Positions 1 to 26,011 are shown, counted from the first letter of the stretch. The stretch is DNA of 64,000 bases from an uncultured delta proteobacterium (GCA_963775425.1 CAVZJB010000005.1:352001-416000), one strand, 5' to 3'. Notes: generated by a model not told the origin, from the letters alone. Translations and numbers: made by a program.

Positions 1-82
1 TAGGCCTGTCGGACGAACGCCGGCGCCACGGACGGCGGCGAACGATGGAGGGCGCTTCTTGTTCACCAGACGACGAAGGCGC

Positions 83-1018
83 GTGCCCATCCTCCGCGGC
101 GTCGCGTACCACATCGATGAGATCGCGCCGATCGACCGCATCCCCGAGCTCGCGGAGGACGCGGAGCTGCTGGCCGCCTTCAAGGAGAGCGGACACAAGA
201 CCTACGGGCACTCCAACCAGAGCCTCGCCGCACAAGCGGTGAGCTCCACCCGGAAGACGCTGGCCGCGGCCAACCTGTCCGTCGGCGACGTCGAGGCGAT
301 CGTTCTCGGCACCTCGGAGATCCCGGAGCCCAACCGCTATCCGGAGATGCTCAGCACCGAAGTGTTGACGGCGCTCGAGCTCTCCGACGTTCCCGTAATC
401 GGCGTGACGCTGGCCGGCTGCGCCAACTACAGCAGCGGGCTGCGCGTGGCGCGGGACATGGCCTCGGCCGAGGGCCTGCGACACGTCCTCGTCATCGAGA
501 CCAACCAGGTGCGCGGAGGGATGAAGCGCGCCGTCGTCGACAACGGCGACGCCGTCTCGATCTTCGCCGACGGCGCGGCGACCTGCGCCGTGAGCGTCGA
601 GGACGATGCCTCCTTCCGCGGCCGGTCTTCGGACTTCGAGCTGGTCGCCATGGCGCAGACCATCAAGCCGCTCGACTGGGCGAGCGCGGAGGAGAACGTC
701 ATCGCGGCGAACAACTTCATGGGGTTCCGCCGCGTCATCGACGAGGCCATGGAGCGCGCCGGCGCGACGCGCGCCGACTTCGTCCAGAGCTTCTTCTCCA
801 ACATCGCCATCGGGCTCGTGAACGCCAACGCAGAGGTGCTGGGCCTGCCGCCCGTGTACACCGCCAACAACAGCCGCACCGCGCACGTCTGGAGCTGCGA
901 CAACCTGATCAACCTCACGGACTACTGCGCCGCCGAGCAGGTGCCGGCGGGCGCCCTGTTCCTGCTTTTGTCCAACGCCGAGTCGTACTTCTCGGCGATC
1001 GTGTGCCGCAAGCGATGA
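83..1018 (+). CDS. 3-oxoacyl-ACP synthase III (FabH/KAS III)-like protein, non-canonical catalytic set (probable acyl/aminoacyl transferase)
   Basis: Thiolase-fold motifs: GDVEAIVLGT, catalytic LAGCANY, IFADGAATC. The HQAN motif is replaced by FSNI and the GNT motif by AHVWSCD. Probable GTG start at 83 after GAAGG (ORF track opens at 59). Stop overlaps the next ATG (ATGA). Confidence 0.75.
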   Translation: MPILRGVAYHIDEIAPIDRIPELAEDAELLAAFKESGHKTYGHSNQSLAAQAVSSTRKTLAAANLSVGDVEAIVLGTSEIPEPNRYPEMLSTEVLTALELSDVPVIGVTLAGCANYSSGLRVARDMASAEGLRHVLVIETNQVRGGMKRAVVDNGDAVSIFADGAATCAVSVEDDASFRGRSSDFELVAMAQTIKPLDWASAEENVIAANNFMGFRRVIDEAMERAGATRADFVQSFFSNIAIGLVNANAEVLGLPPVYTANNSRTAHVWSCDNLINLTDYCAAEQVPAGALFLLLSNAESYFSAIVCRKR

Positions 1019-4000
1019 ATGCCCACGCAGACCTGAGGCCCGGCTTCCAGCGGTTGCTGGACCACATCGCGTCGCGCGTCGTCCCCGGGGTTTCGCTGGA
1101 GGCGGCGCTGCACGACATCCTCGCGCTCGGCGGCCGCCAGGAGCTCGCGTTCGGTATGAAGTCGCTGACGCCGCTGCAGCGCGCGGTGGTCGATGAGCTC
1201 GGTGGGCGGACGTCGACGCTCGTCGACGCCGACGCCGCCACCGCCGGCGGAGCCCGCTGGTACCTCGGCCAGTGGAGCTACGGCCGCATCTGGCTCGCCC
1301 CCGAGCGGCCGGCCGATCCCGAGTGCCGCCTGCTGGCTGCGCTCTCTCTGCCCGCGGCGACGCACGACGCCGTCGTCGCGCGCGCCGTCAGCATCCAGCA
1401 GTCGTGGCAGACGTGCGACCCCGAGATGGACGCGTTCTTCGACAACCTCGACGCCGAAGGACTGCAGCGCGTGCTCCACGAAGTGCACGAGACCGTCGAT
1501 CACACCGATCCGATGCTGCTCTATGTCGGCGACGACACCCTCACCAATTTCGGCAAGCTCAACAACCTGCAGGAGCGCGGCGCCGACCTGCCGCGCTGCT
1601 TCCACCGCCGCGCGCGGGAGATGGCGCGCGACCGCTGGACGACGGCGGAGCGGATCTACGTCTTCTGCGTCTACTGGCTGCGCAGGGCCGGCTGCCGCGG
1701 CGAAGAATTCTGCGGCCGCCAGCTCAACCCCACGCTGCTGCGCGAATACTTCGCGGAGCGGTTGGCGGGCTACCGCGCGCTCGCGCCGGAGCTCTGCGAG
1801 GAAGAAGCCTCATCCATCGCCGACCAGGCGCGGCTGCTCGCGCGCTGCAAGGCCGGGAGCGCACAGCAGCTCTTGACGTATCGCTGGATCAACGGGCTCA
1901 CGTTCTACAAGGAGGAGCGCGTGTGCTCGCGCTCGAGCGCGCGCTTCGGCGTCGACACGCTGCCGCCGGCGCTGCGCGTGTACATCGCGGACGCGTGCGG
2001 CGTCGACACCGGGCAGCACGAGTCGCTCGCCTCGCTGTTCGACGCGTGCGTGGCGCAGATGGCGCGCCGCGGGTTCGCCAGCGACGACGACAAGCTGAAC
2101 GCGTTCGAAGGGCTGCTGAAGGCGATTGTCGACTGCGCCATCGACGCCACCGGCAGCGACATCGGCATGAGCCGTGGCACGCGCGACGTCGCGCGCATGC
2201 AGCGCGCGTTCGGCGAGCAGCGTTATGCGGAGATCTGCGGGTGGCAGAGCCCCGACTACTTCTGCGCGGTCTTCCCGAGCGCCGCCCTGCGAGAGCAGCT
2301 CGCGGGCAACCCCGAGCTGCTGGTGAAGATCCTGTACGCGTGCTCGGCGCGCATGCAGTTCAACCACTGGCACTACATCCCGGGCCACTGCCCGCCCGAG
2401 GGCGTGCCGGCCGACCGGCACTACTACTACCCGCCCGGCGTGGCGGACCTCGCCGAGTGGAGCGACCAACATCACACGGGCCACGTGTTGGCGCAGGTGC
2501 GCTACAGCATCCGCTCGCCGGCGCCGCTGTCGTTTGGCGGAAAGCTCTACCCGGGCATGGTCGACCTGCGCCTCTTTCGCCAGAGCAGCGCGCCGTACAC
2601 GCCCGAAGAGCTCATGACGGCGCTGACGTACACGGACTACGTGCGCGCGCTGCAACAGTCGCTGTCGGATCACCTCGCGCGCGGCGGCGACCCTCTCGTG
2701 GTCGCCGCGTTCGGCAAGGATTGGTACCGCGACTATTACGGTGGCCGGCGCGCGCCCGGCGCCGCTGTGGAAGCCGCCTCCGCTGCGACCGGAGCGCCTG
2801 CGCCTGCGCCTTTCGCGATGGCGTCGGCGCGCGCGGCGCCGAGCACCGCGCTGTTCCGCATCCTGTGCCGGCACGCCGCCGAGGACGCCGGGCATGCCGC
2901 GCTGATCGAAGCGCGCCAGCCCGAGCCGGACGTCACGATCAGCTCCCGCAGGCTCCTCGCTCACGCGCAGGCGCTGCGCGACGCCATGCTCGGCGGCGGC
3001 CTCGCGCCCGGCGCCGCCGTCGCGGTCTTGTCCGAGCGCGCCGTGCATCAGACGGTGGCGATCGTCGCCGGCATCGCCAACGGGCTGATCGTCAACCCGC
3101 TCAACCCCGCGCTCTCGCCGCAGGTGCTGCGGGGGCAGATGGAGCACGCGCAACCCGCTTGGCTGATCGTCGACAGCGGCGTCGCGCCGCCGGCGGGTCT
3201 GCCGGGCACCGTGCGGTGCATCGCCTGGGACGACGTGTTTGCGAACGTCGCCCAACACGAAGCGCTGCCTGTCCCGACCGTCGACGACGGCGCCCCTCGC
3301 GAGGACGCGGGCGGCCTCTTGATCTACACGTCCGGCACCACGGGCGCCTCGAAGGGCGTGCTCTTGAGTTGGTCGAACATCGAAGCCAACGTGCGCTACG
3401 CCGTCGACGCGCTCGGCTTCGAGCCCGGGCAGGTGACGGGCAGCCTGCTCCCGCGCTTTCACACGTTCACGCTCATCAGCGACCTCTTCCCGGCGCTGCT
3501 GCTCGGCGGCACCGGGGTGCTGGCAGACACCTTCGATCTGTCCAACGTGAAGTGGACGGTGGACGCCTTTGTTCGCCACGGCGTGCGTTCGTACAGCGCC
3601 GTGCCCGTCATCTTCGACGCGCTGTGTGCCTTGAACGCCTGGGCCTCCGCGCCGGCGCTGCGCATGGCGATCGCCGGCGCTGCGCCGCTCAAGGAGAACA
3701 CGCGGCTCACGTATAAGAAGGCGTTCGGCCACCCGATCATCCCCTGCTACGGCCTGAGCGAGACGACGTGCTTCGCCGCCATCTCACCGCCGGACGCCAT
3801 CCGACCCGGCGCCGTCGGTCGCGCCGCCGGCATCGAGATCCGCGTCGTCGACGAAGAGGGCGCTCCGCTCGGCAGCGGCGTCACCGGTGAGCTCGAGATG
3901 CGCGGCGCTTCGGTGATCAACAGCGGCTATTTCCACGACACCGACGGCCAGTTCGCGCGCGCGTTCACCGCCGACGGCTGGTTCAAGACGGGCGACGTCG

Positions 4001-4374
4001 GACGCATCGACGACGACGACTATGTGTACGTAACCGGCCGCAAGAAGAACATGGTCATTCGCGGCGGCGAGAAGGTCTATCTCGAAGACGTTGACCGTTG
4101 CCTCGCCGAATTCCTGGGCGTCCTCGACTGCGCCAGCATCGTGCTGTGCCAGCCGAACGAGCCCGACCTGGCGTTGACGTTCATCGTCACCTCCGGTTCT
4201 CCACTGCCGCTTGACGAGGTCACCGCGCACGTGCGCGCCGCGCTTTCGGCGCATCACGTCCCCGACCGCATCTACTTCGTCGAGCGCATCCCGCGCACGG
4301 CGACCGGCAAGGCCTCGCATCCGGAGCTGCTCGCGCTGTCCAAGGCGCTGCGCTCCTCCCAGGAGGGCGCGTGA
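1015..4374 (+). CDS. Fusion protein: ~570-aa uncharacterised His-rich N-terminal domain + AMP-binding (ANL) adenylating enzyme
   Basis: C-terminal half has LIYTSGTTGASKG, YGLSET, WFKTGDVG, TGRKKNMVIRGGEK and PRTATGK. An Ala/Pro linker lies near 2750-2850. N-terminal domain has RMQFNHWHY and WSDQHHTGHV..VRYSIR. ATG at 1015 is coupled to the upstream TGA. Confidence 0.85.
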   Translation: MNAHADLRPGFQRLLDHIASRVVPGVSLEAALHDILALGGRQELAFGMKSLTPLQRAVVDELGGRTSTLVDADAATAGGARWYLGQWSYGRIWLAPERPADPECRLLAALSLPAATHDAVVARAVSIQQSWQTCDPEMDAFFDNLDAEGLQRVLHEVHETVDHTDPMLLYVGDDTLTNFGKLNNLQERGADLPRCFHRRAREMARDRWTTAERIYVFCVYWLRRAGCRGEEFCGRQLNPTLLREYFAERLAGYRALAPELCEEEASSIADQARLLARCKAGSAQQLLTYRWINGLTFYKEERVCSRSSARFGVDTLPPALRVYIADACGVDTGQHESLASLFDACVAQMARRGFASDDDKLNAFEGLLKAIVDCAIDATGSDIGMSRGTRDVARMQRAFGEQRYAEICGWQSPDYFCAVFPSAALREQLAGNPELLVKILYACSARMQFNHWHYIPGHCPPEGVPADRHYYYPPGVADLAEWSDQHHTGHVLAQVRYSIRSPAPLSFGGKLYPGMVDLRLFRQSSAPYTPEELMTALTYTDYVRALQQSLSDHLARGGDPLVVAAFGKDWYRDYYGGRRAPGAAVEAASAATGAPAPAPFAMASARAAPSTALFRILCRHAAEDAGHAALIEARQPEPDVTISSRRLLAHAQALRDAMLGGGLAPGAAVAVLSERAVHQTVAIVAGIANGLIVNPLNPALSPQVLRGQMEHAQPAWLIVDSGVAPPAGLPGTVRCIAWDDVFANVAQHEALPVPTVDDGAPREDAGGLLIYTSGTTGASKGVLLSWSNIEANVRYAVDALGFEPGQVTGSLLPRFHTFTLISDLFPALLLGGTGVLADTFDLSNVKWTVDAFVRHGVRSYSAVPVIFDALCALNAWASAPALRMAIAGAAPLKENTRLTYKKAFGHPIIPCYGLSETTCFAAISPPDAIRPGAVGRAAGIEIRVVDEEGAPLGSGVTGELEMRGASVINSGYFHDTDGQFARAFTADGWFKTGDVGRIDDDDYVYVTGRKKNMVIRGGEKVYLEDVDRCLAEFLGVLDCASIVLCQPNEPDLALTFIVTSGSPLPLDEVTAHVRAALSAHHVPDRIYFVERIPRTATGKASHPELLALSKALRSSQEGA

Positions 4375-5312
4375 TCATCGATAGCCACGCGCACGCGGCG
4401 CTGGAGGAGGTGCTGCCCACGCGCTTCTTCGACGGGTGGGTCGACAACCTCGAGCGCTTGTTGCCGTCCGATGCGTCGCCGGCGCAGCGCGCGGCGCTCA
4501 GCGCGATGTTTCGCGCCGCAAACCAGGACCCGGGCTGCGACCGGCTGGTGGCCGAGATGGATCGCGCCGGCATCGCCAAGACGGTGCTGTTGATCGTCGA
4601 CTTCGGGTACGCGTATCCCGATCAGCTCGACGCGCTCGAGAGCATCTACGAGCTGCATCGTCAGCTCATGCAGCGCCACGCGGGCCGCTTCATCGTCTTC
4701 GCGGGCATCGATCCGCGCCGCGGTCAGGCGGGCGTCGACCTGCTGGAGCGCGGCCTGCGGGATTGGGGCTTTCGCGGGATGAAGATCTATCCCCCGTGTG
4801 GCTACTCGCCGGACGCGCGCGAGCTCGATCCCTTCTACGAGGTCTGCACGCACTACAGCGTCCCGGTGCTGTCCCACATCGGGCCGACGTCGCCCACGTT
4901 GTCGTTCAAGCACACGCGGCCCGAGCACATCGAGGACGCGGCGTTCCGCTTCCCCGGCGTGAACTTCATCCTCGGCCACGCCGGCGTCACGTGGCGCGCG
5001 GAGGCCAGAATGCTCGCGGCCTTCAGGCCGAACGTCTACCTCGACCTCTCGGGCTTCCAGCCGCACTGGAAGCGCGGGGAGCTCGACGGGATCCTGGCCG
5101 AGCACAAGCGTGACGGCGTGCTGCGCAAGCTCTTGTTCGGCACGGACTGGCCCATCCACTTCCTGCACGGCGATCAGCAGCAGTGCGTGGAGGCGTTCCG
5201 CGACTGCGCGCGGCGCGGGGTCATCACCGAGGAAGAGCTGGGCTGGCTCTTCTACCGGAACGCGCAGAGGCTGTTCGGGGACGCCGCCGGCGGCGAGGAA
5301 GCCGCGAGGTAG
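4371..5312 (+). CDS. Amidohydrolase_2 family metallohydrolase/decarboxylase
   Basis: IIDSHAH (HxH), GMKIYPPCGY, VLSHIG, ILGHAG, VYLDLSG, LFGTDWP. GTGA overlap with the upstream gene. Confidence 0.85.
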   Translation: MIIDSHAHAALEEVLPTRFFDGWVDNLERLLPSDASPAQRAALSAMFRAANQDPGCDRLVAEMDRAGIAKTVLLIVDFGYAYPDQLDALESIYELHRQLMQRHAGRFIVFAGIDPRRGQAGVDLLERGLRDWGFRGMKIYPPCGYSPDARELDPFYEVCTHYSVPVLSHIGPTSPTLSFKHTRPEHIEDAAFRFPGVNFILGHAGVTWRAEARMLAAFRPNVYLDLSGFQPHWKRGELDGILAEHKRDGVLRKLLFGTDWPIHFLHGDQQQCVEAFRDCARRGVITEEELGWLFYRNAQRLFGDAAGGEEAAR

Positions 5313-5359
5313 GGTGCGCGCCGCGCGCTGGGCTACCATTGGCTGGAAAGGGAACTCTC

Positions 5360-5584
5360 ATGTCAACCCGGCAGGCCGTGCTCGATGTGCTCGCCAAACA
5401 TGCGCAGTGCGACGCCGCCACGCTCTCACCCGAGGACGTCCTGGCCGACGTCGGCGTCAATTCTCTCAAGTTCATCATGGTGCTCCTGGAGATCGAGCAG
5501 GTGACGGGGAAGAAGGTCATGGACATCAACAAGATCGGCAAGCTGAAGACGGTGGGCGACGTCCTTGCGCTGACCGAGTCGTAG
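5360..5584 (+). CDS. Stand-alone acyl/peptidyl carrier protein (74 aa)
   Basis: MSTRQAVLDVLAKHAQ...LADVGVNSLKFIMVLLEIE...LKTVGDV. Phosphopantetheine Ser sits in GVNSL. ATG at 5360 follows AAAGGGA. Confidence 0.85.
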   Translation: MSTRQAVLDVLAKHAQCDAATLSPEDVLADVGVNSLKFIMVLLEIEQVTGKKVMDINKIGKLKTVGDVLALTES

Positions 5585-5593
5585 GGAACCCCG

Positions 5594-6019
5594 ATGCACG
5601 ACATCCGCCTCGCCCGACAAGACGACGAGATCGCCGCGACGTTCGCCGTGATGCACCAACTGCGCACGCATCTCGTCGAGAGCGACTACGTCGCGCTGGT
5701 GCGTAAGCTCCAGGCACAAGGGTACTTGTTGGCCTACGTGGACGACGGCGAGCGCGTGGTGGCCGCCGCCGGTTTCAAGCTCGGCGCCTCGCTCGCCTGG
5801 GGCGACTACGTCTATATCGACGACCTCGTCACCGACACCCGCGCGCGCTCGGCCGGGCACGGTGCGCGGCTGATGGCATGGGTCGCCGATTACGGCCGCC
5901 AACGCGGCTGCACCGAGCTCCACCTGGACTCCGGGGTGCAACGCTTCGCCGCGCACCGCTTCTATCTGCGCGAGCGCATGGACATCACCTGCCATCACTT
6001 CTGTCTACGCATCGCGTAG
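5594..6019 (+). CDS. GNAT family N-acyltransferase
   Basis: YIDDLVTD..ARSAGHGARLM (acyl-CoA binding motif A), LHLDSG, AHRFY. Confidence 0.9.
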   Translation: MHDIRLARQDDEIAATFAVMHQLRTHLVESDYVALVRKLQAQGYLLAYVDDGERVVAAAGFKLGASLAWGDYVYIDDLVTDTRARSAGHGARLMAWVADYGRQRGCTELHLDSGVQRFAAHRFYLRERMDITCHHFCLRIA

Positions 6020-6037
6020 GAAATGAGACTTCGCGGG

Positions 6038-6679
6038 TCAGCGCACCGGACCGGCGGGCACCGCGAGCGGGGCGCCAGACGCGGCCACGGCGCGCGCGAC
6101 GTCGGGCGGCAGCGCTCGCCGGCGGGGCGCCGGGGGCGCGTCGAGCAGCGCGCGGGCGAGCTCGGCGGCGGCCTCGAGGGCGCCGATGGGCACGCGATCG
6201 CTGGCGGCGACGTCGACGAGGAGGCGGCCGTCGGCGAGCTGGACGGCGAGCGCGCCGTGCGCGTCGAAGAGCGCGTCGACGGCGGCGCGCACGCGGGTCC
6301 GCGCACCGCTGCCGGCGGGAGCGTCGCCGCGCTCGCCGTCGGGGTGGCCCGGGCGCGCGAGGTCGAGGGGGAGCGCTTCGGGGCCGCGCGCGAGCGCGGC
6401 GCGGTAGATGAGGAGGCGGGGGGAGCGGTCGGCGCGCTCGATCCGTCCGCGGATCTCCCAGGTCGGCACCTCGTCGCCGCCGAGGCAGAGGCGGCCGCGC
6501 ACGAGCTCGAGCCGGGCCACGCCGTCGTCGAAGCGGGCGCACGGGTGCGCGAAGGGAAGGCCCGCCGTCGACGACCGCAGGCGCGGATCTCCGGCGAACG
6601 GCCTGCGCGCTGACCGGCCCGCGAGCGCCGCGAACACGGCGACGATGGTTCCGAAGATGATCGTGGCGGCGAGCCCCAT
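6038..6679 (-). CDS. Hypothetical protein with N-terminal membrane anchor
   Basis: MGLAATIIFGTIVAVFAALAG hydrophobic start. Protein-like composition, unlike the overlapping frames. Confidence 0.55.
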   Translation of the reverse strand: MGLAATIIFGTIVAVFAALAGRSARRPFAGDPRLRSSTAGLPFAHPCARFDDGVARLELVRGRLCLGGDEVPTWEIRGRIERADRSPRLLIYRAALARGPEALPLDLARPGHPDGERGDAPAGSGARTRVRAAVDALFDAHGALAVQLADGRLLVDVAASDRVPIGALEAAAELARALLDAPPAPRRRALPPDVARAVAASGAPLAVPAGPVR

Positions 6680-6790
6680 GCCGCCGATCCTAGCGTCCCG
6701 CCACGTCGCCGACGCGCCCGACGCGCGCGGACGACGCCGGCGCTCGCGCGCGTAGACATCTCGTCTCCGCGGGGAACGCCGCTGCGCCGC

Positions 6791-7747
6791 TCAACGCAGC
6801 GCGAGGACGCTCCGGGCGACGCCTTCGGCGTCGAGGCCGTGCTTTTTGTAGAGCGCCTTGGGGTCGCCGGACTCGCCGAAGACGTCCTGCACGCCGAGGC
6901 GCAGCAGGCGCGCCGGCGTCCGCGACGTCAACGACTCGGCCACCGCCCCGCCGAGGCCGCCGAGCACGTTGTGGTCCTCCACCGTCACCAGGCCGAGCTT
7001 GCACTCCCGGGCCGCCTTCTCGATGGCGTCGTCGTCCACGGGCTTGATGGTCGACGCGTTCAAGACGCGGGCCGACACGCCCTGCTTGGCGAGCAGCGCC
7101 GCCGCATCGACGGCGCCGCCGACGCAGCCTCCGGTCGCGAGGATGGCGACGTCGGTGCCCTCGAGGAGCGTGGGGAACCTTCCCGGCACGAAGCGGTAGC
7201 CCTCGGGGTGCACCCGCGGCACGTCCTGCCGCGTGAGCCGCAGGTACGCCGGGCGCGGATCCGTCGCGAGGTGGTCCACCATCTGCGCGGTCTCGACGTC
7301 GTCGGCCGGCTGCAACACCAACATGGTGGGCAGCGAGCGCATCAGCGCCAGGTCCTCGAGGCCTTGCTGCGAGTAGCCGTCGGGGCCGATGCCGACGCCG
7401 GCGTGCGTGCCGACGATGCGCACGCGCGCCTGCGAGTACGCCACGCTCATCTTGATCTGGTCGAAGCGCCCCGTGATGAAGCAGGCGAACGAGCAGCAAA
7501 ACGGCGTGTAGCCCGAGAGCGCGAGCCCGGACGCGGTGCCGAGCATGTTCGCCTCCTGGATGCCCATCTCGAAGAAGCGATCGGGGTGGGCCTTGGCGAA
7601 CACCACGGACATCGTGGACTTGCTGAGGTCGGCGTCGAGCACCACGACCTTGTCGTCGCGATCGCCGAGCGCCTTGAGGGCTTCGCCGAACGCCTTGCGC
7701 GTGGCCATGGGCTTGACGACGTCGACGGCTGCGGTGGGGTGGTTCAT
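6791..7747 (-). CDS. Transketolase, C-terminal (pyrimidine-binding) subunit
   Basis: ATRKAFGEAL, LDADLSKST, EMGIQEANM, GPDGYSQQ (His of GxSHQ replaced by Gln), YLRLTR, TVEDH..GGLG. True ATG at 7747 overlaps the upstream stop. Confidence 0.92.
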   Translation of the reverse strand: MNHPTAAVDVVKPMATRKAFGEALKALGDRDDKVVVLDADLSKSTMSVVFAKAHPDRFFEMGIQEANMLGTASGLALSGYTPFCCSFACFITGRFDQIKMSVAYSQARVRIVGTHAGVGIGPDGYSQQGLEDLALMRSLPTMLVLQPADDVETAQMVDHLATDPRPAYLRLTRQDVPRVHPEGYRFVPGRFPTLLEGTDVAILATGGCVGGAVDAAALLAKQGVSARVLNASTIKPVDDDAIEKAARECKLGLVTVEDHNVLGGLGGAVAESLTSRTPARLLRLGVQDVFGESGDPKALYKKHGLDAEGVARSVLALR

Positions 7748-8592
7748 GCGAGCTCCTTCATGGCGCGCTCGTACTCGTCTTTGTTCGGCGCCTTGCCGTG
7801 CCAGCCGACGGTGTCCTTCTCGAAGAAGCTCACGCCCTTGCCCTTGATGGTGTGGGAGAGCACCACCGTAGGCCTGGCGGTCTCCGCGCGCGCGGCCGCG
7901 CACGCCGAGCGAATCTCGTCGACGGAGTGGCCGTCGATGGTCAGCACGTTCCAGCCGAACGCGCGCCACTTTTCGGCCAGCGGCTCGAGGGGCATGACGT
8001 CGGAGACCAGGCCGTCGATCTGTCCGTTGTTCCAGTCCACGAACACCGTGAGGTTGGTGGCGCCGAGCTTGGGCGCCGACAGCGCCGCCTCCCACACCTG
8101 CCCCTCCTGCAGCTCGCCGTCTCCGGTGACGACGTAGCAGCGCCAGGCCGGGCCCTTGTCGCCGCCGGTCGACGCGGCGCCGCCGAGCTTGCCGGCGAGC
8201 GCGATGCCCTGCGCCACGCTCAGGCCCTGCCCGAGGGAGCCTGTGGACGCCTCGATGCCGGGGAGGAGCGCGTTGGCGGGGTGTCCCTGCAGGGGCGAGC
8301 CCAGCTCCCGCAGCGTGCTCAGATCGGACAGCGGGAAGTAGCCGCGCTCGGCCATCACCGCGTACAGCGCGGGGACGCCGTGGCCCTTGGAGAGCACGAA
8401 GCGATCGCGCTCGGGCCACGAGGGGTTCTTCGCATCGAAGCGCATCTCGCCCGAATAGAGGGTGAGGATGATCTCGAGGGCGGAGAAGCTCCCGCCGGGG
8501 TGGCCGCTGCCGGCCTTGGTGATGGCCTCGAGGATGTGGCGCCGGAGCTTCTTGGCGGTCTCCCGGAGCTCGTCCACGCTGATTTGCTGCAT
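7744..8592 (-). CDS. Transketolase, N-terminal (TPP-binding) subunit
   Basis: GSGHPGGSFS, RDRFVLSKGH, LQGHP, STGSLGQG, GDGELQEGQVWEA, TIKGKG, WHG. ATG at 8592. Confidence 0.93.
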   Translation of the reverse strand: MQQISVDELRETAKKLRRHILEAITKAGSGHPGGSFSALEIILTLYSGEMRFDAKNPSWPERDRFVLSKGHGVPALYAVMAERGYFPLSDLSTLRELGSPLQGHPANALLPGIEASTGSLGQGLSVAQGIALAGKLGGAASTGGDKGPAWRCYVVTGDGELQEGQVWEAALSAPKLGATNLTVFVDWNNGQIDGLVSDVMPLEPLAEKWRAFGWNVLTIDGHSVDEIRSACAAARAETARPTVVLSHTIKGKGVSFFEKDTVGWHGKAPNKDEYERAMKELA

Positions 8593-8647
8593 GCCCCCGC
8601 TTATGTTCCCGGTGCGTCGACGACAAGAGGTGGCGTAGCTTCCGCCC

Positions 8648-10624
8648 ATGGAAAACGGTTCGCCCGAGGCATCGCTCCTCGCGAAGAGCCCCGCGCCCGC
8701 GGCGCGCGGCGTGTTCCGCTTCATCGATCGGCTGCTGCCGGCGGTGGTGCGGACCACGGCCGACGAGCTGCGGCGCGGTCGCATCTTCCTGGCCATCTGG
8801 GGGCTGTTGTCCCTGGCGGCGTGGTTCTTCGCGTGGGCCATCCTCAACGACGGGGCCACGTCCGGCGTCCCCGCAAACGCCGTCGTCCTCATCATCGGCG
8901 GCGCGCTCGCCACGATCATCCTCCCCATGGCGCACTGGCTCGAGAGCGTCCGCCGCGCAGGCGCCGTGCTCACCGTGGAGTTCGTCGCCGTCGTGCTCTT
9001 CCTCGGCTGGACGGGCAGCGGTCCCGGCGACGCCTCGCAGTGGTTCCTGATGCTCGCGCCCCTCGTCGGCGCGTTTCTGGTCGGCACGCGCGCGGGCCTC
9101 GTGGCCGCCGGCGTGTCCATCGTGGGCACGTTCGGCCTCTACGTCGCCAAGGACGTGCTCCAACTGCCGTTCGGCGTGCGCGACGCCACCGCCGACTGGT
9201 TCGACGCCATGGGAGGCGCGTTCGTCATCGGCATCGCCGCCGTCATCGCCTTCGCGTGGGAGGCGGCGCAGCGTGACAGCTTGACCCGCGTCGCCGAGGC
9301 CCTGCAGGAGCTGCGCGGCAAGAACAGCGAGCTCGAGGCGTTGGCGCAGCGGTTCGCCGAGGCGCGGGATCGTGCCGTCGAGGAGAACCAGCGCAAGGGC
9401 GTGTTCCTCGAGAGCATGCGCACCTTCTCGGAGCAGCAAGGCCACGCGCTCGAGCGCACGCGCCTGGCCACCGCGCAGCTCGCCGACACCATTCGCGCCA
9501 TCTCGACGTCGGTGGAGACGCTGGCGGCGTCGAGCCAGGCCTCGGACACCACCGTCTCCGACATGGCGGAGAGCGCGTCGCGGGTGTCGCAGACGGCGCA
9601 GTCGCTGGTGGCCGGCGTCGAAGAGGCGGACCGGGCGCTCGCGGGGCTGACGGCGGCGGTGGCGTCGGTGCAGGCGCAGTACGACGACCTGCGGCGCGGC
9701 GCCGAGAGCACGGCGGCGGCCATGCTCGAGATGGAGCGGTCGGTGTCGCTCGTGGAGCAGCGCGCGGTGCGTACGGTGGAGCTGTCAGACGCCATGATCC
9801 GCGACGCCGAGCGTGGGCGCGAGGCGGTGCGGCGCACCATCGCCGGCGTCGACGACATCCGGGCGAACGCGCGCCTCGCGGGCGAGGTGATCCGCACGCT
9901 CGACGGCCGCGTCGCCGCCATCAGCGCCATCAACAGCGTCATCGACGAGGTGGCGGTGGAGACCAACGTGCTTGCGCTCAACGCGTCCATCATCGCGGCG
10001 CAGGCGGGGGAGCGCGGACAGGGCTTCGCCGTCGTCGCGGACCAGATGCGCTCGCTCGCGGCGCGCACCGCGCTGTCCACGCGCGAGATCTCCCTGGTCA
10101 TCCGCGCGGTGCAGTCGGAGGCAAAAAACGCCGTCGACGCCATCCAGAAGGGTGAGCGCGCCGTCGACCAGGGCGTCACGTTGTCCGAAGACGCCGCCGG
10201 CGCCCTCGAGCAGATCGTGTCCTCGGCGCGCCAGGCCACCGAAGAGGTCCGCGGCATCGAGCAGGCGACGATGGAGCAGGCCAAGCGCGCCCGCGACGTC
10301 GGGGGGGCGATGGGGGAGGTCACGCGCCTCGTCTCCGACGCCAGCGCGGCCACCTCCGAGCACGGGCGCTCGGCGCGCCTCATCGAGGCCACCATGCAGC
10401 GCCTGCGCGCGGCCGCGCCCGACCTCGAGCAGCGCAGCCGCCAGCAGGCCGACGGCGCACGCCTCGCGCGCGCGGCGCTCGCAAAGATCTCGGAGATGGC
10501 CAGGCGCCTGTCCACGGTGCAGAGCGACCAGACCCGCTCGAGCGCGCAGACACTGCGCGCCGTCGAGGAGATCCAGCGCGCGCAGCGCGGCCAGGACGAG
10601 GCCATGCGCCAGCTCTCGGAGTAG
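8648..10624 (+). CDS. Methyl-accepting chemotaxis protein with multi-pass N-terminal membrane sensor
   Basis: Signalling hairpin IDEVAVETNVLALNASIIAAQAGERGQGFAVVADQMRSLA. About 6 hydrophobic segments in the first 200 aa, then long coiled coils. Confidence 0.9.
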   Translation: MENGSPEASLLAKSPAPAARGVFRFIDRLLPAVVRTTADELRRGRIFLAIWGLLSLAAWFFAWAILNDGATSGVPANAVVLIIGGALATIILPMAHWLESVRRAGAVLTVEFVAVVLFLGWTGSGPGDASQWFLMLAPLVGAFLVGTRAGLVAAGVSIVGTFGLYVAKDVLQLPFGVRDATADWFDAMGGAFVIGIAAVIAFAWEAAQRDSLTRVAEALQELRGKNSELEALAQRFAEARDRAVEENQRKGVFLESMRTFSEQQGHALERTRLATAQLADTIRAISTSVETLAASSQASDTTVSDMAESASRVSQTAQSLVAGVEEADRALAGLTAAVASVQAQYDDLRRGAESTAAAMLEMERSVSLVEQRAVRTVELSDAMIRDAERGREAVRRTIAGVDDIRANARLAGEVIRTLDGRVAAISAINSVIDEVAVETNVLALNASIIAAQAGERGQGFAVVADQMRSLAARTALSTREISLVIRAVQSEAKNAVDAIQKGERAVDQGVTLSEDAAGALEQIVSSARQATEEVRGIEQATMEQAKRARDVGGAMGEVTRLVSDASAATSEHGRSARLIEATMQRLRAAAPDLEQRSRQQADGARLARAALAKISEMARRLSTVQSDQTRSSAQTLRAVEEIQRAQRGQDEAMRQLSE

Positions 10625-10664
10625 TCCGCCACGGGCGCTTCGCGGCCGGCCTGGTATCCTTCCC

Positions 10665-11268
10665 GTGGTGCGCGCGCTCATCGTCGCCGCCGGGGCCGTC
10701 GTCGCCTGTGCAGGGTGCCCACCCACCGGACCGATCTCCGACGGCGGCCACTATCAGCTCGTCGGCAGCGGCCTCGTCACCTCCGACGGCGCGCTGCCCG
10801 CGGCGTGGGACCACGAGCCCGTCCTCGTCGGGACGCGCGCCTGTCCGGCGCCGGCATGCCTCGACGACGCGTGCGCGCCGCCGTCGACCGACGCCGAGGG
10901 CTTCAGCGCCGGCTGCGTCAGCGCCGCCGCCTCGGGCGCGCTCGTCGACGACGACGGCTGCCTCTCGTTCGCCTCCGCGGGCGAAGGGAGCTGGTCGCTC
11001 GTCCCCACGAGCACCTGCGCCGTGCCCGCTCGCAGCCGAGCAGCCGGGCTCGGGGGGCGGTCTGCCGTCGACGCTGTCCGCCGCCGACGCCTCCTTCGTC
11101 CCGAACGCGCCGTGTCCGCCGCGCGCGTCGGCGCCGCCACCGGCGCAGGCCGCTCCCGCCGGCGGAGGGTGCTCGTGCGGCGCCGGCGACGCCGCCCCCA
11201 CCGCGGCGCTCTTCGGGCTCGCCGGCGTCCTCGCCGCGTGTCGCCGTCGCTGGCGCCGGCGCGCGTGA
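10665..11268 (+). pseudogene. Frameshifted/truncated Cys-rich lipoprotein with MYXO-CTERM sorting tail
   Basis: Frame from GTG 10665 gives a lipoprotein-like signal (VRALIVAAGAVVACAGC). The tail GGGCSCGAGDAAPTAALFGLAGVLAACRRRWRRRA is in a different frame. The switch is near 11020-11040. Confidence 0.55.
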
Positions 11269-11299
11269 CCCTTCCCGGGCGCGCAGCTACATTCGCCGC

Positions 11300-11890
11300 G
11301 TGACGTTCTTCAAGACCACGCGCCGGCGTGTGATCGCGTTCGGAGCCGCGGGGGCGGCTGCGCTCGCGGCGGGCGAGGCGTTGCGTTGGTTCGCGTTCGG
11401 CTACGACCTCCACGGCGACGACCCTCCTGTGGCGCTGTCGAGTAAGGAGCTCGTCGTCGTGCGGGCCATCGTCGAAGCCCTCTGCCCGCCCGACGGTGAC
11501 TTCCCGTCGGGCGTCGCGCTGCGCGTGCCGTACAGCATCGACGAAGAGGTCTATTCGCAGACGCCGGAGCTGCGGAGCGACATGAAGGCGGCCATCGAGG
11601 TCATCGAGCACGCGCCCCCGCTCGTCGGTGTCCCGCACCGCCTGAGCGCGCTCCCGCCCGACAAGCGCGCGGAGGTCTTTCAGCGGCTCTTGCAGAAGGG
11701 GCCCGACGTCATCGTGCAGGCGGGGGTGGCGCTCAAGGAGATGACGTCTCTGTACGCCTACGGCTCCGAGGCGACGTGGTCCGCCATCGGCTACGACGGC
11801 CCCTGGGTGAAGACCGTGGTGCCGCCGCCGTCGCACGCGCGCTACGCCGCGGCCGCGGCCGCCGCCGCCGCCAAGGGGAGGAGGGCGTGA
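11300..11890 (+). CDS. Tat-exported gluconate 2-dehydrogenase subunit-3-like partner of a GMC oxidoreductase
   Basis: TTRRRVIAFG twin-arginine signal, C-terminal TWSAIGYDGP, directly upstream of the GMC gene (GTGA overlap). GTG at 11300. Confidence 0.7.
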   Translation: MTFFKTTRRRVIAFGAAGAAALAAGEALRWFAFGYDLHGDDPPVALSSKELVVVRAIVEALCPPDGDFPSGVALRVPYSIDEEVYSQTPELRSDMKAAIEVIEHAPPLVGVPHRLSALPPDKRAEVFQRLLQKGPDVIVQAGVALKEMTSLYAYGSEATWSAIGYDGPWVKTVVPPPSHARYAAAAAAAAAKGRRA

Positions 11891-13470
11891 GCCTCTCCGA
11901 CGAGCTCGCCGTCACCCAGGGCAAGGACGTCACCGCTGATCGCACGGAGACCGCTGACGTCTGCGTCATCGGCTCCGGCTGCGGCGGCGCGTCGCTGGCC
12001 AACCGGCTGGCCGCGCAGGGCAAGAGCGTGGTCGTCGTCGAGCGCGGGGGCTTCTACTCGGCCAAGGACTTCGATCAGCGCGAGGTCCACATGCTCGCCA
12101 AGATCGACGGCGCCCGCGGCCTCGACACCTCCGACGACGGCGGCGCCTCCTTCACCTACGGCAACAACGTCGGCGGCGCGTCGGTGCACTACTGGGCCGA
12201 CAGCTATCGCACCCCGCCGGACCGTTTGAAGCTGTGGGCGGAGCGCTTCGGCATCGAGGGTCACGACGAGGAGACGCTGCGGCCGTCCTTCGACGAGATC
12301 GAGCGCGACCTCAACGTGCACGAGGCGGACGACGCCCACGTGAACACCATGAACCGGCTCGTCCACGACGCCGCCACCGCGCTCGGCTGGGCGGTGGAGC
12401 GCGTGCCCCAGGCGCGCCGCGGCTGCCCGGGATCCGGGCACTGCATGCAGGGCTGCGCGTACGACGCCAAGCAGTCGCAGCTCGTCACGTACATCCCCGC
12501 GGCGCTCTCCCGCGGGGCCAAGCTGTTCTCCGACGCCCGCGCCGTGGAGCTCGTGAGCGACGCGCCCGGCGTGCAGGGCACGGTGCGCGCGCTGCGTTGC
12601 CGCATCGTCGACCGCGCGAGCGGCCGCGACGCCGGGCCGACGCTCACGGTGAAGGCCAAGGCGTTCGTCGTCGCCGCCGGCGGCTACGGCACGCCGGAAT
12701 TCCTCTTGCGCCAGAGGGGCCTCAAGGACCGCCTGCCGCACCTGGGCGAGCACTTCTTCTGCAACCCCTGCGCGCAGGTGCACGGGGTGTTCCCTGAGGA
12801 GATCGTGCAGTGGCGCAACATCCCCGCGGCGTGGGGCGTCACGCACTTCCGCCTCGCGAGGGAGCAGGCCGGCGCGTACGTCGAGGGCGGCTACCTCTTG
12901 ATGGCGAACCAGCTCCACCCGGCAGTGCTGAGCGCGTGCCTGCTCGTCGACGGCAAGCGCCAGCGCGAGATCATGCTCCGCTACCGGAACCTCGGCGGCG
13001 CCATCGCGTGGATCGACGACGCCGAGGAGGGGCGCGTGTGGATCGACGGCGCTGCGGACACCGGGCGGCGTCGCGTGCACGTGCCCCTCGGCGGCGGCAA
13101 CGGACTGCGCCTGAAGGACGCGTGGAGCAAGGGCGCGCGCATGCTGTTTGAGGCCGGGGCCACCGAGGTCTTCTTCGGCGACGTGAACGACACGCGCATG
13201 CGCGACGTCGCCGCCGTCGGCGCCGCCGTGGCGTCTTTGGACATCCGCCCGTCGCGAAACGTCTTCGCCACCCCGCACCCTGGCGGGGGCGCCCGCATGG
13301 GCAGGGACGCATCGACGAGCGTGGTGGGCTTCGACCACCGCGTCCACGGCACCGACAACCTCTATGTCTCGGACCCGAGCGTCTTCCCGACGCCGCCGAG
13401 CGTGGACCCGAGCCTCTCCATCATGGCCTTCAGCTTCGTCGCCGCCGCCGCCGTGGCCGCGCGCGTCTGA
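11887..13470 (+). CDS. GMC family oxidoreductase (FAD)
   Basis: DVCVIGSGCGG, VGGASVHYW, CPGSGHCMQGC, TPHPGGGARMG, NLYVSDPSVFPT...DPSLSI. GTG at 11887. Confidence 0.9.
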   Translation: MSLSDELAVTQGKDVTADRTETADVCVIGSGCGGASLANRLAAQGKSVVVVERGGFYSAKDFDQREVHMLAKIDGARGLDTSDDGGASFTYGNNVGGASVHYWADSYRTPPDRLKLWAERFGIEGHDEETLRPSFDEIERDLNVHEADDAHVNTMNRLVHDAATALGWAVERVPQARRGCPGSGHCMQGCAYDAKQSQLVTYIPAALSRGAKLFSDARAVELVSDAPGVQGTVRALRCRIVDRASGRDAGPTLTVKAKAFVVAAGGYGTPEFLLRQRGLKDRLPHLGEHFFCNPCAQVHGVFPEEIVQWRNIPAAWGVTHFRLAREQAGAYVEGGYLLMANQLHPAVLSACLLVDGKRQREIMLRYRNLGGAIAWIDDAEEGRVWIDGAADTGRRRVHVPLGGGNGLRLKDAWSKGARMLFEAGATEVFFGDVNDTRMRDVAAVGAAVASLDIRPSRNVFATPHPGGGARMGRDASTSVVGFDHRVHGTDNLYVSDPSVFPTPPSVDPSLSIMAFSFVAAAAVAARV

Positions 13471-13472
13471 CG

Positions 13473-14891
13473 TCAGCGGACGTAGATGGCGCCGCCGTAG
13501 ATCCAGACGTAGTCGGTGCCGTCGGCGATCTTGTCGTCGAGGAGGGTCGTGGCGTCCGCGCGCATGTCCTGGCGCAGGTGCAGCGGGAGGATGCGCACCT
13601 CGGCCCGCCAGGCGCCGGGCAGGTCGGCGACGACCTCGAGGTGGTCGCCGGTGCTCTTGCCCACTTCGACCCATCCAGAAGCGTCGTTGGTGGCGCGAAG
13701 CACGCGAAGGGTGATCACCGGCGCCTCGCGGGAGGGATCGAGGTCCTTCACCTTGGGCTTCTCGACGACGATGCGCGCGCCGACGGGCGCGGTGTCTCCC
13801 ATTTCGATGGTCGTGGAACCGTCGACGGCATAGGAGTCGAAGCCCACCGGGTACCCCATCATCTCGAACGCGCCGTAGTTGCGCCCGGCGAGGAGCGCCT
13901 CCTTCAGCGAGCGGTCATCCCAGGTGCCGTCGGCGGCCGTGCGGATGCGCAGGTGGTTCGAGAACGCGATCATCATGCGCCGGTAGCTGTCGGCCCGCTC
14001 GCCGTCCTCCATGATGGTCGTGAACGTGTTGCGATGGCAGTCGGTGCCCATGGTGGTGACGACGTGCTTTCCGCCTGCGAGCACGTTGCCCCAGCGCGTG
14101 AGGTAGCGCGGGTCCTCGGACCAGATGGACATGATGAGCAGGTCCGGGACCGGGATGGTCTTGTCGCCGTCGTTCCAGCGCAAAAGCAGGTCGAGCGCCT
14201 GGCCCGCGCCGAGGATGGTGTTGGCGTGCAGGTTGTACATCTCGAAGCCGTCGTTGGGCATGGCGGCGAGCTCGTCGACGGAGAAGTCCTCGGGGTGCGC
14301 GAGCAGCACGACGGCGCCGTGGTCGTGCAGCGTCTGCACCGCCTCTTCGGTGCGCTGGCCGTAGAGATCGCCGCGCTGGTCCGGCGGGGCGGCGTGGCCC
14401 TCGAGGCCGACGGGCATCATCCCGCCCTCGTTGCCCGCCATGATCATCGCGGTGTGGCCGTCGTCGCAGGTGATGACGTTGGCGCTGTCGATGCCGTCGT
14501 GGCTGATGAGGACGTCGCCGCGGTCCTCCCGGTACAGCAGCGCCTCGGGGAACTCGGTGGTGTCGAAGGACTCGCGGTGGTCGGTGAGGAAGGCGAAGTC
14601 GTGCTGCGACTGGCACAGCCCGCGGCGGAAGTCGTCGAAGCACACGGGATCGCGCGTGCCGTCGTCGAGGACGGGCTTGCCGTCGCAGGCGTCGTGCGAA
14701 TAGACCGAGTGCGAGTGCACGAGGCCGCGCACGTCGGCGAAGCCGCGCACGGTCGCCGTCTCCGACGGGTACACCACGCTGGGCTTCCAGACCGGGCCGG
14801 TCTTCTTGGCGGCTTCGGGGGTGCAGGCGAGGGCGCCGAGGGCCGCGAGGGCGGCGACGAGGGCGCGGGCGGAGGACGGGGACAAAGCCAT
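13473..14891 (-). CDS. Lipoprotein with PHP-like metal-dependent hydrolase domain
   Basis: Lipobox ALAC, HSHSVYSHD, FLTDH, LAHP, GTDCH. Confidence 0.75.
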   Translation of the reverse strand: MALSPSSARALVAALAALGALACTPEAAKKTGPVWKPSVVYPSETATVRGFADVRGLVHSHSVYSHDACDGKPVLDDGTRDPVCFDDFRRGLCQSQHDFAFLTDHRESFDTTEFPEALLYREDRGDVLISHDGIDSANVITCDDGHTAMIMAGNEGGMMPVGLEGHAAPPDQRGDLYGQRTEEAVQTLHDHGAVVLLAHPEDFSVDELAAMPNDGFEMYNLHANTILGAGQALDLLLRWNDGDKTIPVPDLLIMSIWSEDPRYLTRWGNVLAGGKHVVTTMGTDCHRNTFTTIMEDGERADSYRRMMIAFSNHLRIRTAADGTWDDRSLKEALLAGRNYGAFEMMGYPVGFDSYAVDGSTTIEMGDTAPVGARIVVEKPKVKDLDPSREAPVITLRVLRATNDASGWVEVGKSTGDHLEVVADLPGAWRAEVRILPLHLRQDMRADATTLLDDKIADGTDYVWIYGGAIYVR

Positions 14892-14954
14892 GCGGGCCCA
14901 TAGCGCGCCCGCTCCCTGCGGGAAACGTCCCCAACCCCGACGGGCACGGGGCCG

Positions 14955-15647: not shown

Positions 15648-15691
15648 GCGCGAATGTTCCGGGATCCGCCCGCGTTCGGCAAACTGTCCAC

Positions 15692-25510: not shown

Positions 25511-26011
25511 CTACAGGGCCGCCAACACCTTCGGCGGCATCAACCACACGAGCTGGCCCCGGGTGCGCGGGAGGTCCTCGACGAGGAGCATCGCCGCGCC
25601 CGCCTTCTTCATCGATGTCACCGGTGCGCGCTCACCCGTGAGCGCGACCGCGATGACCTTGTCGACGTTGGGGGCGTGGCCGGCGCAGAGGATCTCTTCG
25701 TCGCTGGCGTGGAACGCGAACAACGCGTGGAAGATGGCGTAGGGCGCGGCCTCGGGCAGGAGCGCCTCGGTGATGGTGATCTTGCTGTCGGGGACGCCCA
25801 GGGCCTCGGCGGCCAGGGCGGCGGTCTCCTTGGCGCGCAGGTAGGGGCTCGTGAGGATGCGCGTGGGCGCGCAGCCCACGGCCTTGAGGCCCTTGCAAGC
25901 CTTGCGCGTCCTCTTCTTGCCCTCTTCGGTGAGCGCGCGCTCCGCGTCCACCGGGCAGTTGGGGTCGGCCCGATCGTGGGCGATGCCGTGGCGAAGGACG
26001 ATGACCTTCAC
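25511..26011 (-). CDS. sixA: Phosphohistidine phosphatase SixA
   Basis: VLRHGIA, ERALT..G, TSPYLRAKETA, AGHAP. GTG 26011 overlaps the ppk1 stop. Confidence 0.88.
   Translation of the reverse strand: MKVIVLRHGIAHDRADPNCPVDAERALTEEGKKRTRKACKGLKAVGCAPTRILTSPYLRAKETAALAAEALGVPDSKITITEALLPEAAPYAIFHALFAFHASDEEILCAGHAPNVDKVIAVALTGERAPVTSMKKAGAAMLLVEDLPRTRGQLVWLMPPKVLAAL

Follow-up and report, generated by a model that had tools for sequence, protein, structure and literature searches.

The haem b proteins KinJ, FzmP and FsnU2 carry no previously known domain and, together with a 2[4Fe-4S] ferredoxin, are reported to convert nitrite or nitric oxide (NO) and L-Asp to hydrazinosuccinate (10.1101/2025.05.27.656397; 10.1101/2025.06.26.661531). 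In the characterised members of this family the electrons come from a low-potential ferredoxin, and nitrite or NO is described as being reduced at the haem and coupled to the alpha-amine of an amino acid, which gives a hydrazino acid. The family was recognised only in 2025, and the handful of actinomycete members that have been studied are all stand-alone proteins. Here we analyze a gene from an uncultured delta proteobacterium in which a domain of this family is fused to a class I adenylate-forming (ANL) domain. The gene lies in a 64,000-nucleotide stretch of DNA (GCA_963775425.1, CAVZJB010000005.1:352001-416000), which is called the window below and from whose first letter positions are counted unless another contig or locus is named. 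An earlier interpretation of the same DNA, made without any database search and referred to here as the sequence-only reading, had proposed that the N-terminal part of the gene product resembles FzmP, KinJ and NegJ and that an Ala/Pro linker joins it to a complete ANL domain.

The residues named for KinJ are H541 (the axial haem ligand), C468, M498, H504, N501, R497, R551 and R570 (10.1101/2025.05.27.656397), and those named for FsnU2 are H532, R488, R542 and R561 (10.1101/2025.06.26.661531). The three arginines (KinJ R497/R551/R570; FsnU2 R488/R542/R561) are proposed to bind nitrite and the amino acid. Kenney et al. furthermore report a DosT-like and PixJ-like GAF domain in KinJ's C-terminal region, and amide-forming ligases in many KinJ clusters (10.1101/2025.05.27.656397).

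The handling of a hydrazino acid after its formation has been described for triacsin and azaserine. There a GNAT-family enzyme (Tri31/AzsS) is reported to succinylate hydrazinoacetate at the distal nitrogen, and the AMP-dependent ligase Tri29/AzsP takes the succinylated form only and loads it onto the small carrier protein Tri30/AzsQ. The hydrolase AzsT then cleaves the succinyl group, and the KAS III-type enzyme Tri13/AzsD shifts the unit to the next carrier. In the 'cluster E' of Kenney et al., homologues of KinJ adjoin homologues of Tri31/AzaB/NngQ and Tri29/AzaC/NngO (10.1101/2025.05.27.656397).

The N-terminal domain is a full-length member of the KinJ/FzmP/NegJ family

The fusion gene and its parts have the following layout:

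1015-4374, plus strand: fusion gene encoding 1119 amino acids (aa), open frame 1003/1015-4374
1015-2739, plus strand: predicted KinJ/FzmP/NegJ-family haem domain (N-domain), aa 1 to about 575, from homology, residues and model
2350-2373, plus strand: R-M-x-x-N-x-W-H motif, in which R446, M447, N450 and H453 correspond to KinJ R497, M498, N501 and H504
2482-2484, plus strand: His490, predicted axial haem ligand, corresponding to KinJ H541 and FsnU2 H532 by a constant-offset match
2740-2844, plus strand: Ala/Pro-rich interdomain linker, aa about 576 to about 610, from sequence
2845-4374 including the stop codon, plus strand: ANL domain, aa about 611-1119

Searches of Pfam, NCBIfam and PDB sequences returned no match for the N-terminal approximately 575-590 aa, and a feature search of the ESM Atlas gave no usable match. 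An exhaustive phmmer search of the N-domain against 1.84 billion representative proteins, on the other hand, returned 231 matches at E<=1e-3, of which 203 reach E<=1e-10 and 149 reach E<=1e-30. Among the best 150 of the 231 matches, 145 are at most 650 aa long, mostly stand-alone proteins of 560-650 aa together with some shorter fragments, and the remaining five are longer (1119, 1106, 1137, 1013 and 822 aa). The cluster members of 10 distant representatives bore only the name 'hypothetical protein' and two names from Solirubrobacteraceae metagenome-assembled genomes (MAGs), and gave no link to KinJ.

The link was obtained with a sub-alignment of 10 rows from the actinomycete-like branch. Species-representative genomes were scanned with it, and the 53 loci returned include Micromonospora rosaria DSM 803, Salinispora pacifica CNR114, other Salinispora and many Nocardia and Actinomadura. 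BLASTP of the N-domain against the Salinispora pacifica CNR114 protein (L027:9947-11836) gave 27% identity over 581 columns with an E value of 2e-50, and the aligned span runs end to end, from aa 10-571 of the query to aa 50-622 of the subject; the Micromonospora rosaria protein (L010) gave 27% over 588 columns with an E value of 4.6e-42. The Salinispora pacifica protein (629 aa) is encoded directly after a 2[4Fe-4S] ferredoxin gene and is flanked by glutamine-synthetase-like, amidase, polyketide cyclase, aromatic hydroxylase and aromatic polyketide genes, and the Micromonospora rosaria gene lies behind amidase and glutamine-synthetase-like genes. Micromonospora rosaria is the fluostatin species and Salinispora pacifica the lomaiviticin species. 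From species and context, without an accession number, the Salinispora and Micromonospora proteins are inferred to be Lom29 and FlsU2, since both contexts agree with the published Lom29/Lom30 and fls cassette.

All residues named for KinJ and FsnU2 are identical in the N-domain at one constant offset, as C417, R446, M447, N450, H453, H490, R500 and R519, and the spacings of 54 and 19 residues between R446, R500 and R519 are the same as in the arginine trios of KinJ and FsnU2. In an alignment of the N-domain with 127 stand-alone members (128 sequences) the columns of E230, R446, M447, W452, H453, D478, H490, R500, P502 and R519 do not vary, and that of N450 is conserved to at least 90%. Of 163 family sequences, 160 contain the pattern R-M-x-x-N-x-x-H, and among the three without it are two short fragments in which the region is not covered. 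H490 is kept in 18 of 18 aligned rows, and the fused proteins of either clade described below retain the named residues.

An AlphaFold2 model of 1015-2772, built with the 128-row alignment, has a mean predicted local distance difference test score (pLDDT) of 95.3 and a predicted template-modelling score of 0.93, with pLDDT falling to 54-84 at the linker end. Foldseek of the model against the PDB gave nothing at E<=1e-3, and the weak rows were almost all GAF-containing proteins. With VIA-align, run both on the Foldseek list and independently over 48,161 representative chains, model residues from about 314 to 559 aligned with GAF domains in either case, at Z 9-10 with 133-160 aligned residues. 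The matches included 3cit (Z 10.1, rmsd 2.9, 136 aa) and PixJ 4glq (Z 9.8, rmsd 3.3, 139 aa), and, among haem sensors, DosS 2y79 (Z 9.5) and haem-bound DosT 2vzw (Z 9.3, rmsd 3.2, 133 aa). Because Z values of about 8 are common with VIA-align, the GAF likeness is a statement about the fold only. The GAF-like C-terminal half of the model reproduces the fold reported for KinJ.

Collectively, sequence, conserved residues and predicted fold make the N-domain a full-length member of the KinJ/FzmP/NegJ family. The resemblance proposed by the sequence-only reading is thereby borne out: the checks that it had suggested, BLASTP and a structure comparison of an AlphaFold model, gave a full-length sequence match to the KinJ family at E 2e-50 with all named residues identical, and a GAF-like half of the model at Z 9-10 by VIA-align. 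Haem binding, N-N chemistry and substrate of the N-domain, as well as the order of steps and the product discussed below, are inferred.

Phytochrome PAS-GAF bidomains were found to align over a longer span of the model, namely 6tby (Z 9.3, 168 aa, residues 165-553), 5akp and 3c2w. The KinJ family might conceivably derive from a phytochrome-like tetrapyrrole-binding PAS-GAF module, which is a weak, model-based suggestion with Z no higher than for GAF alone.

The fusion to a complete ANL domain is real and recurrent

The database copy of the protein (P0168) has 1119 aa, which is consistent with a start at 1015. The ATG shares ATGA (1015-1018) with the TGA stop (1016-1018) of the gene upstream, and the TGA stop of the fusion gene overlaps the GTG start of the next gene in GTGA (4371-4374). 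The third-position GC content (GC3) lies between 0.85 and 0.97 in every 300-nt block of 1003-4374, and from this continuity it follows that N-domain, linker and ANL part are a single coding frame. The peptides quoted by the sequence-only reading are all in place, RMQFNHWHYIPGH at aa 446 (nt 2350-2388), YYPPGVADLAEWSDQHHTGHVLAQVRYSIRSP at aa 471 (nt 2425-2520) and GMVDLRLFR at aa 514 (nt 2554-2580), as are the Ala/Pro linker and the complete ANL domain. Its description of the N-domain as Cys/His/Trp-rich holds for Cys (2.8%) and Trp (1.9%), which are moderately raised, but overstates His (2.9%, as against 2.8% for the ANL part).

The domain behind the linker is a complete member of the ANL superfamily. 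It matches PF00501 with 191.7 bits (cut-off 29.9) and PF13193 with 27.7 bits, and the core motifs A3, A5, A7, A8 and the A10 Lys are all intact (TSGTTGASKG, CYGLSE, FKTGD, GRKKN and PRTATGK). The best NCBIfam rows are acyl-CoA ligases, all of which stay under their cut-offs. The nearest solved relatives are malonyl-CoA synthetase (4fuq/4gxq, E approximately 1e-45) and oxalyl-CoA synthetases. Since these enzymes act on small dicarboxylates, the domain fits a small, acidic substrate, and since they are coenzyme A (CoA) ligases, CoA is a possible acceptor. A condensation domain of a nonribosomal peptide synthetase (NRPS), against which the sequence-only reading had already decided, was rejected here as well, as there is no HHxxxDG in the protein and no PF00668 match at E<=0.1.

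Besides our own protein, 21 distinct fused clusters of at least 1000 aa (1013-1178 aa) and several junction-spanning fragments were found. PF00501 is listed for 20 of the 21, and the remaining one (P0031) comes from a phmmer listing without Pfam domains. The organisms named are Noviherbaspirillum aerium, a Noviherbaspirillum MAG and Herbaspirillum sp. HC18, and further copies come from metagenomes. The closest relative (P0172) has 67% identity in the N-domain. It is clear from these copies, from the linker sequence without a stop and from the continuous GC3 that the fusion is genuine and recurs in other genomes. The fused proteins carry names such as 'acyl-CoA synthetase', 'long-chain fatty acid--CoA ligase' or 'class I adenylate-forming enzyme family protein', and no others. 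A search for longer proteins gave KinJ+ANL proteins of 1043-1178 aa and nothing else; that no larger (megasynthase) fusion turned up is weak evidence with this tool.

A quick tree of 150 N-domains (FastTree), whose support values are local only, places the fused proteins in two clades. The first contains 15 fused rows including our own, with two stand-alone proteins and then the locus L070 as sisters. The second contains five fused rows including that of a genome of the same family (G002), and its sisters are stand-alone as well. Between the two clades stand 22 stand-alone proteins, the minimum number of state changes is two, and identity between the ANL domains of one clade and those of the other is 37-45%. 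This quick tree suggests two origins of the fusion.

The KinJ family was found in 3 of 401 sampled genomes of the window's phylum: the window's own genome (G000), G002, which is of the same taxonomic family and has the fused form, and G203, an 11.9-Mb genome with a distant stand-alone homologue (29% identity) that is directly followed by an ANL gene (L078:7160-10761, minus strand). The remaining context in G203 consists of an FAD monooxygenase, an aminotransferase and a TetR gene, so the KinJ-then-ANL adjacency recurs outside the cassette described in the next section. In another genome of the same family, a short KinJ-like fragment with 42% identity to aa 435-519 and an in-frame TAG (G004:C117:9418-9672, minus strand; L065) may be a gene remnant.

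The sequence-only reading had known the family as stand-alone actinobacterial proteins and had considered the fusion new. The first view was already too narrow, since Kenney et al. place members beyond actinobacteria (10.1101/2025.05.27.656397). As to the second, we found no published description, whereas fused copies are already in the databases without meaningful annotation. The main text of Kenney et al. contains neither 'fusion' nor 'fused' and does not mention a KinJ-ANL fusion, and its supplements may differ. In Shi et al. (PMC12408219) 'fused' occurs in reference titles only and the text has no KinJ-ANL fusion; in a 2026 review of N-N natural products (November 2026, PMC13755311) KinJ, FzmP and NegJ are all absent; and the single 'fusion' in a Nature 2026 paper on diazo compounds (PMC13061610) means the MetRS/cupin enzyme. 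Library searches gave no further paper on the family, and the fused form could still appear in supplements or in the original NegJ paper.

The fusion is part of a conserved five-gene cassette

The fusion gene is accompanied by four further genes:

59-1018, plus strand: KAS III (FabH)-like protein, start TTG 59 or GTG 83, approximately 311-319 aa, weak PF08545 and TIGR00747 matches
4371-5312, plus strand: Amidohydro_2 (PF04909) protein of the metal-dependent hydrolase/decarboxylase family, 313 aa, 122.9 bits
5363-5584, plus strand: acyl carrier protein (ACP), 73 aa, PF00550 at 26.8 bits (cut-off 20.8), with the Ser in GVNSL
5594-6019, plus strand: GNAT-family N-acyltransferase, 141 aa, PF00583 at 49.1 bits

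The KAS III-like, fusion, Amidohydro_2, ACP and GNAT genes are a translationally coupled five-gene cassette, in which the ACP gene starts 51 nt past the amidohydrolase gene; this ACP gene had been overlooked in the sequence-only reading. FabH structures can be aligned to the N-terminal half of the KAS III-like protein, where the active-site Cys is retained in an AGCA context, and the C-terminal half is too diverged to score. The role of this protein is probably acyl transfer and not condensation.

Orthologues of the cassette proteins were collected by BLASTP (percentages are identities to our own proteins) and Pfam, and a metagenome scan gave five loci. The related loci are arranged as follows:

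L067: fused (ANL 59%), N-domain 56%; KAS III-like gene (47%) directly upstream, Amidohydro_2 76%, ACP 42%, GNAT 62%
L068 (contig end): fused; KAS III-like gene (40%) directly upstream
L069 (contig ends inside the KinJ part): KAS III-like gene (37%) directly upstream
L066 (genome G002): fused, plus a second ANL gene (45%); Amidohydro_2 49%, GNAT 59%, GcvT-like gene
L070: separate, in the order Amidohydro_2 - ACP - KinJ (625 aa) - ANL - ANL (best 37%); Amidohydro_2 47%, ACP 32%, GNAT 51%; then an alpha/beta hydrolase and an NRPS module
L071 (36% GC): separate, in the order ANL (31%) - Amidohydro_2 - ACP - GNAT, a reductase and a stand-alone KinJ (574 aa); Amidohydro_2 43%, ACP 33%, GNAT 43%

The ANL part of L067 is identical to that of the Noviherbaspirillum MAG protein. 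In the loci with enough flank (L066, L067, L070 and L071) Amidohydro_2, GNAT and ANL are present in four of four and the ACP in three of four. Amidohydro_2, ACP, GNAT and KAS III-like orthologues were found in none of the 53 mostly actinomycete family loci (BLASTP, E<1e-6), 16 of which have weak ANL matches of 25-30% identity. KinJ, ANL, Amidohydro_2, ACP and GNAT thus constitute a module of their own, which is kept from 36% to 72% GC and in which KinJ and ANL are sometimes fused.

Two further genes were observed at these loci. A NirB-type NAD(P)H nitrite reductase large subunit is encoded about 3 kb downstream of the cassette in L067, a metagenome locus of the Noviherbaspirillum type (L067:16653-19118, plus strand), which could be a link to nitrite or a coincidence. 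The cassette version of G002 ends with a GcvT-like aminomethyltransferase (L066:5802-7046, minus strand; PF01571, 206 bits), which hints at glycine or one-carbon chemistry.

A proposed route and its alternatives

A GNAT, an ANL enzyme, a carrier protein and a KAS III-type enzyme are encoded together in one operon and conserved in the relatives. As this make-up parallels the triacsin/azaserine module, we propose a route of making, protecting, loading and handing over. The haem domain would make a small hydrazino acid from nitrite, either hydrazinoacetate (with Gly) or hydrazinosuccinate (with Asp), with electrons that would be supplied by a ferredoxin encoded elsewhere in the genome. The GNAT would then acylate the distal nitrogen as a protecting group, the fused ANL domain would adenylate the carboxylate and load the adjacent ACP, the Amidohydro_2 amidohydrolase would strip off the protecting acyl group, and the KAS III-like enzyme would transfer the hydrazino-acyl unit to a further acceptor. 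We consider it rather probable that the reading as a whole is right, that is, that a haem N-N enzyme and an ANL enzyme are fused in a cassette that makes a carrier-bound hydrazine building block.

Candidate ferredoxins exist in the genome. A motif scan found two of the 7Fe type and one 2[4Fe-4S] ferredoxin (C2:108046-108351, C5:783606-783941 and C16:839395-839736), although PF11953 (DUF3470, the tail of 7Fe ferredoxins) was not found in the same genome. FzmP and NegJ are likewise described as being without an in-cluster ferredoxin and having ferredoxins elsewhere in the genome (10.1101/2025.05.27.656397). A prediction of a complex between the N-domain, given as its alignment, and the 7Fe ferredoxin P0188, run without controls, scored 0.25 vs a mark of 0.32, which speaks neither for nor against binding.

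Several observations weigh against the proposed route. The identity to the characterised actinomycete clade is about 27% and the N-domain belongs to a clade with no studied member, which makes another substrate or another nitrogen chemistry possible. A search of window positions 1-16000, the 20 kb upstream (L009) and the G002 locus gave no CxxCxxCxxxC ferredoxin motif, and no nitrite-generating gene was seen in the cassette. The parallel to triacsin and azaserine is one of family-level make-up. The acyl-ACP dehydrogenase of that module (Tri22/AzsF) has no counterpart in the cassette, G002 has no ACP orthologue (BLASTP, E<1e-6), and the ANL domain may use CoA instead of the ACP as acceptor. The Amidohydro_2 family also includes decarboxylases, with LigW-type matches, so the deacylase role is a guess.

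The strongest alternative keeps the same enzymes and gives the ANL domain another acceptor than the ACP, in which case it would make a CoA thioester or use the acyl-adenylate to acylate the new hydrazine nitrogen to a hydrazide or amide. It would be in line with the malonyl-CoA and oxalyl-CoA synthetases as nearest solved relatives, with acyl-CoA ligases as the best NCBIfam rows (all below their cut-offs), with the second ANL gene and the missing ACP orthologue (E<1e-6) in G002, and with the amide-forming ligases reported for many KinJ clusters (10.1101/2025.05.27.656397). The 73-aa ACP, however, is encoded in the same operon, in L067, L070 and L071 the cassette is accompanied by orthologues of this ACP, and a KAS III-like enzyme, of a type that normally acts on carrier-bound acyl groups, is conserved too. 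In the fosfazinomycin and negamycin clusters the acylation of the hydrazine is the job of ATP-grasp ligases. All in all we regard this other use of the ANL domain as unlikely, though it is the competitor to be taken most seriously.

A second alternative lets the N-domain be a haem protein of the KinJ family with another nitrogen chemistry (another amine, N-nitrosation, or reduction of nitrite or NO), so that the product would hold no hydrazine. The approximately 27% identity to characterised members, the cassette partners found in 0 of the 53 mostly actinomycete loci and the lack of an in-cluster ferredoxin leave room for it. Yet the axial His, the three Arg, the Cys, Met, Asn and His are all retained, and the combination of a GNAT, an ANL enzyme and a carrier protein is a known way of handling hydrazino acids, as reported for the systems above. 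A different chemistry therefore appears to us more unlikely still than a different ANL acceptor.

That the N-domain has no catalytic role and, as a haem sensor of the GAF type, regulates the fused ANL domain in response to NO, nitrite or redox state is suggested by the resemblance of the C-terminal half to the GAF fold of the haem sensors DosS and DosT. We think this very improbable, as the entire 575-aa architecture of the catalytic family and the Arg trio are kept, well beyond the GAF part, and relatives have the N-domain as a separate gene within the same biosynthetic cassette. Finally, an assembly or frameshift artefact that joined two neighbours, for which it could be said that KinJ-type and ANL genes are separate in L070, L071 and G203 and adjacent in L070 and G203, can practically be dismissed in view of the linker without a stop, the continuous coding GC3 and the 21 other fused clusters of at least 1000 aa (1013-1178 aa) from independent genomes and metagenomes.

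The natural fusion is a 'Rosetta stone' that points to carboxyl activation as the next fate of the hydrazino acid in a large unstudied branch of the family. It delimits a compact cassette of five genes that lends itself to expression and testing as one unit, and it provides a search handle for proteins that are hidden under the names 'acyl-CoA ligase' or 'class I adenylate-forming enzyme'. If the proposal is true, one polypeptide that makes and activates a hydrazino acid from nitrite would be attractive for biocatalysis. A bolder version, which we put forward tentatively and with rather less confidence than the route itself, is that a self-contained, patchily distributed cassette of about 6 kb has probably spread horizontally among Gram-negative soil bacteria and turns nitrite and a simple amino acid into a carrier-bound hydrazino, or further oxidised diazo or hydrazone, acyl unit, that two independent fusions serve to channel the reactive hydrazino acid, and that the products would be an undescribed class of N-N metabolites outside actinomycetes.

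Surroundings of the cassette

Upstream of the cassette lies a divergent GT1-type glycosyltransferase gene (L009:18521-19747). Downstream, the cassette is followed by a transketolase that is split and lies on the opposite strand, and by a chemotaxis receptor. Housekeeping and signalling genes make up the remainder of the window, which makes the cassette a compact unit of about 6 kb. The transketolase is encoded in two open reading frames (ORFs) converging on the cassette (6791-9129, minus strand), with the N-terminal thiamine-diphosphate domain within 7744-9129 and the pyrimidine-binding and C-terminal domains in the 3' part of 6791-9445.

A second Amidohydro_2 protein (57772-58773, plus strand; 155.8 bits) is encoded far from the cassette. 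At 26008-31178 a polyphosphate kinase gene (minus strand) adjoins genes for a Ppx/GppA phosphatase and a CHAD-domain protein (plus strand) in an ordinary polyphosphate locus. Two adjoining genes at 35963-42250 (minus strand) encode a 1429-aa protein, whose sole Pfam match is to the PNP_UDP_1 phosphorylase superfamily (aa 829-953), and a protein of 665 aa with a PP2C-like domain. At 60676-63999 (minus strand) an open-ended protein of more than 1107 aa contains 10 Cys-rich DUF4215 repeats (399 bits). We take DUF4215 to be typical of myxobacteria, and together with the many Ser/Thr kinases of the window it presumably fits the sequence-only reading's impression of a myxobacterium-like genome.

Comparison with known systems

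The N-domain shares with KinJ, FzmP, Lom29, FlsU2, FsnU2 and NegJ a length of approximately 575-630 aa over which the proteins can be aligned end to end, and with the KinJ family the identical axial His, Arg trio, Cys, Met, Asn and His as well as a GAF-like C-terminal half. A ferredoxin gene is absent from its cluster, as it is from those of FzmP and NegJ, and 7Fe ferredoxins are encoded elsewhere in the genome. It differs by the approximately 27% identity, by the covalent fusion to an ANL domain, by its place in another clade of the family and by its high-GC genome, which is Gram-negative and myxobacterium-like in look. The partners of the known hydrazino cassettes (glutamine-synthetase-like, amidase and adenylosuccinate-lyase-like) are absent here and replaced by Amidohydro_2, ACP, GNAT and KAS III-like proteins.

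Compared by enzyme types, the cassette is like the triacsin/azaserine module in combining a GNAT, an ANL acyl-carrier ligase, a small carrier protein, a hydrolase and a KAS III-type enzyme. The source of the hydrazine, however, is a lysine N-hydroxylase and a cupin/MetRS-like route in triacsin and azaserine and would be a haem enzyme here; the ANL enzyme of that module is a separate protein, its hydrolase is a C45 peptidase where our cassette has Amidohydro_2, and its acyl-ACP dehydrogenase is absent from our cassette.

A likeness in arrangement exists to 'cluster E', in which a KinJ homologue also stands beside a GNAT and a carrier-loading adenylating enzyme. The main text that describes 'cluster E' has them as separate genes, more than 55% identical to the enzymes of actinomycetes, and mentions no fusion. 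The family itself was already known in 2025, and what appears to be new here is the recurrent KinJ-ANL fusion together with a distinct conserved cassette in Gram-negative-type genomes.

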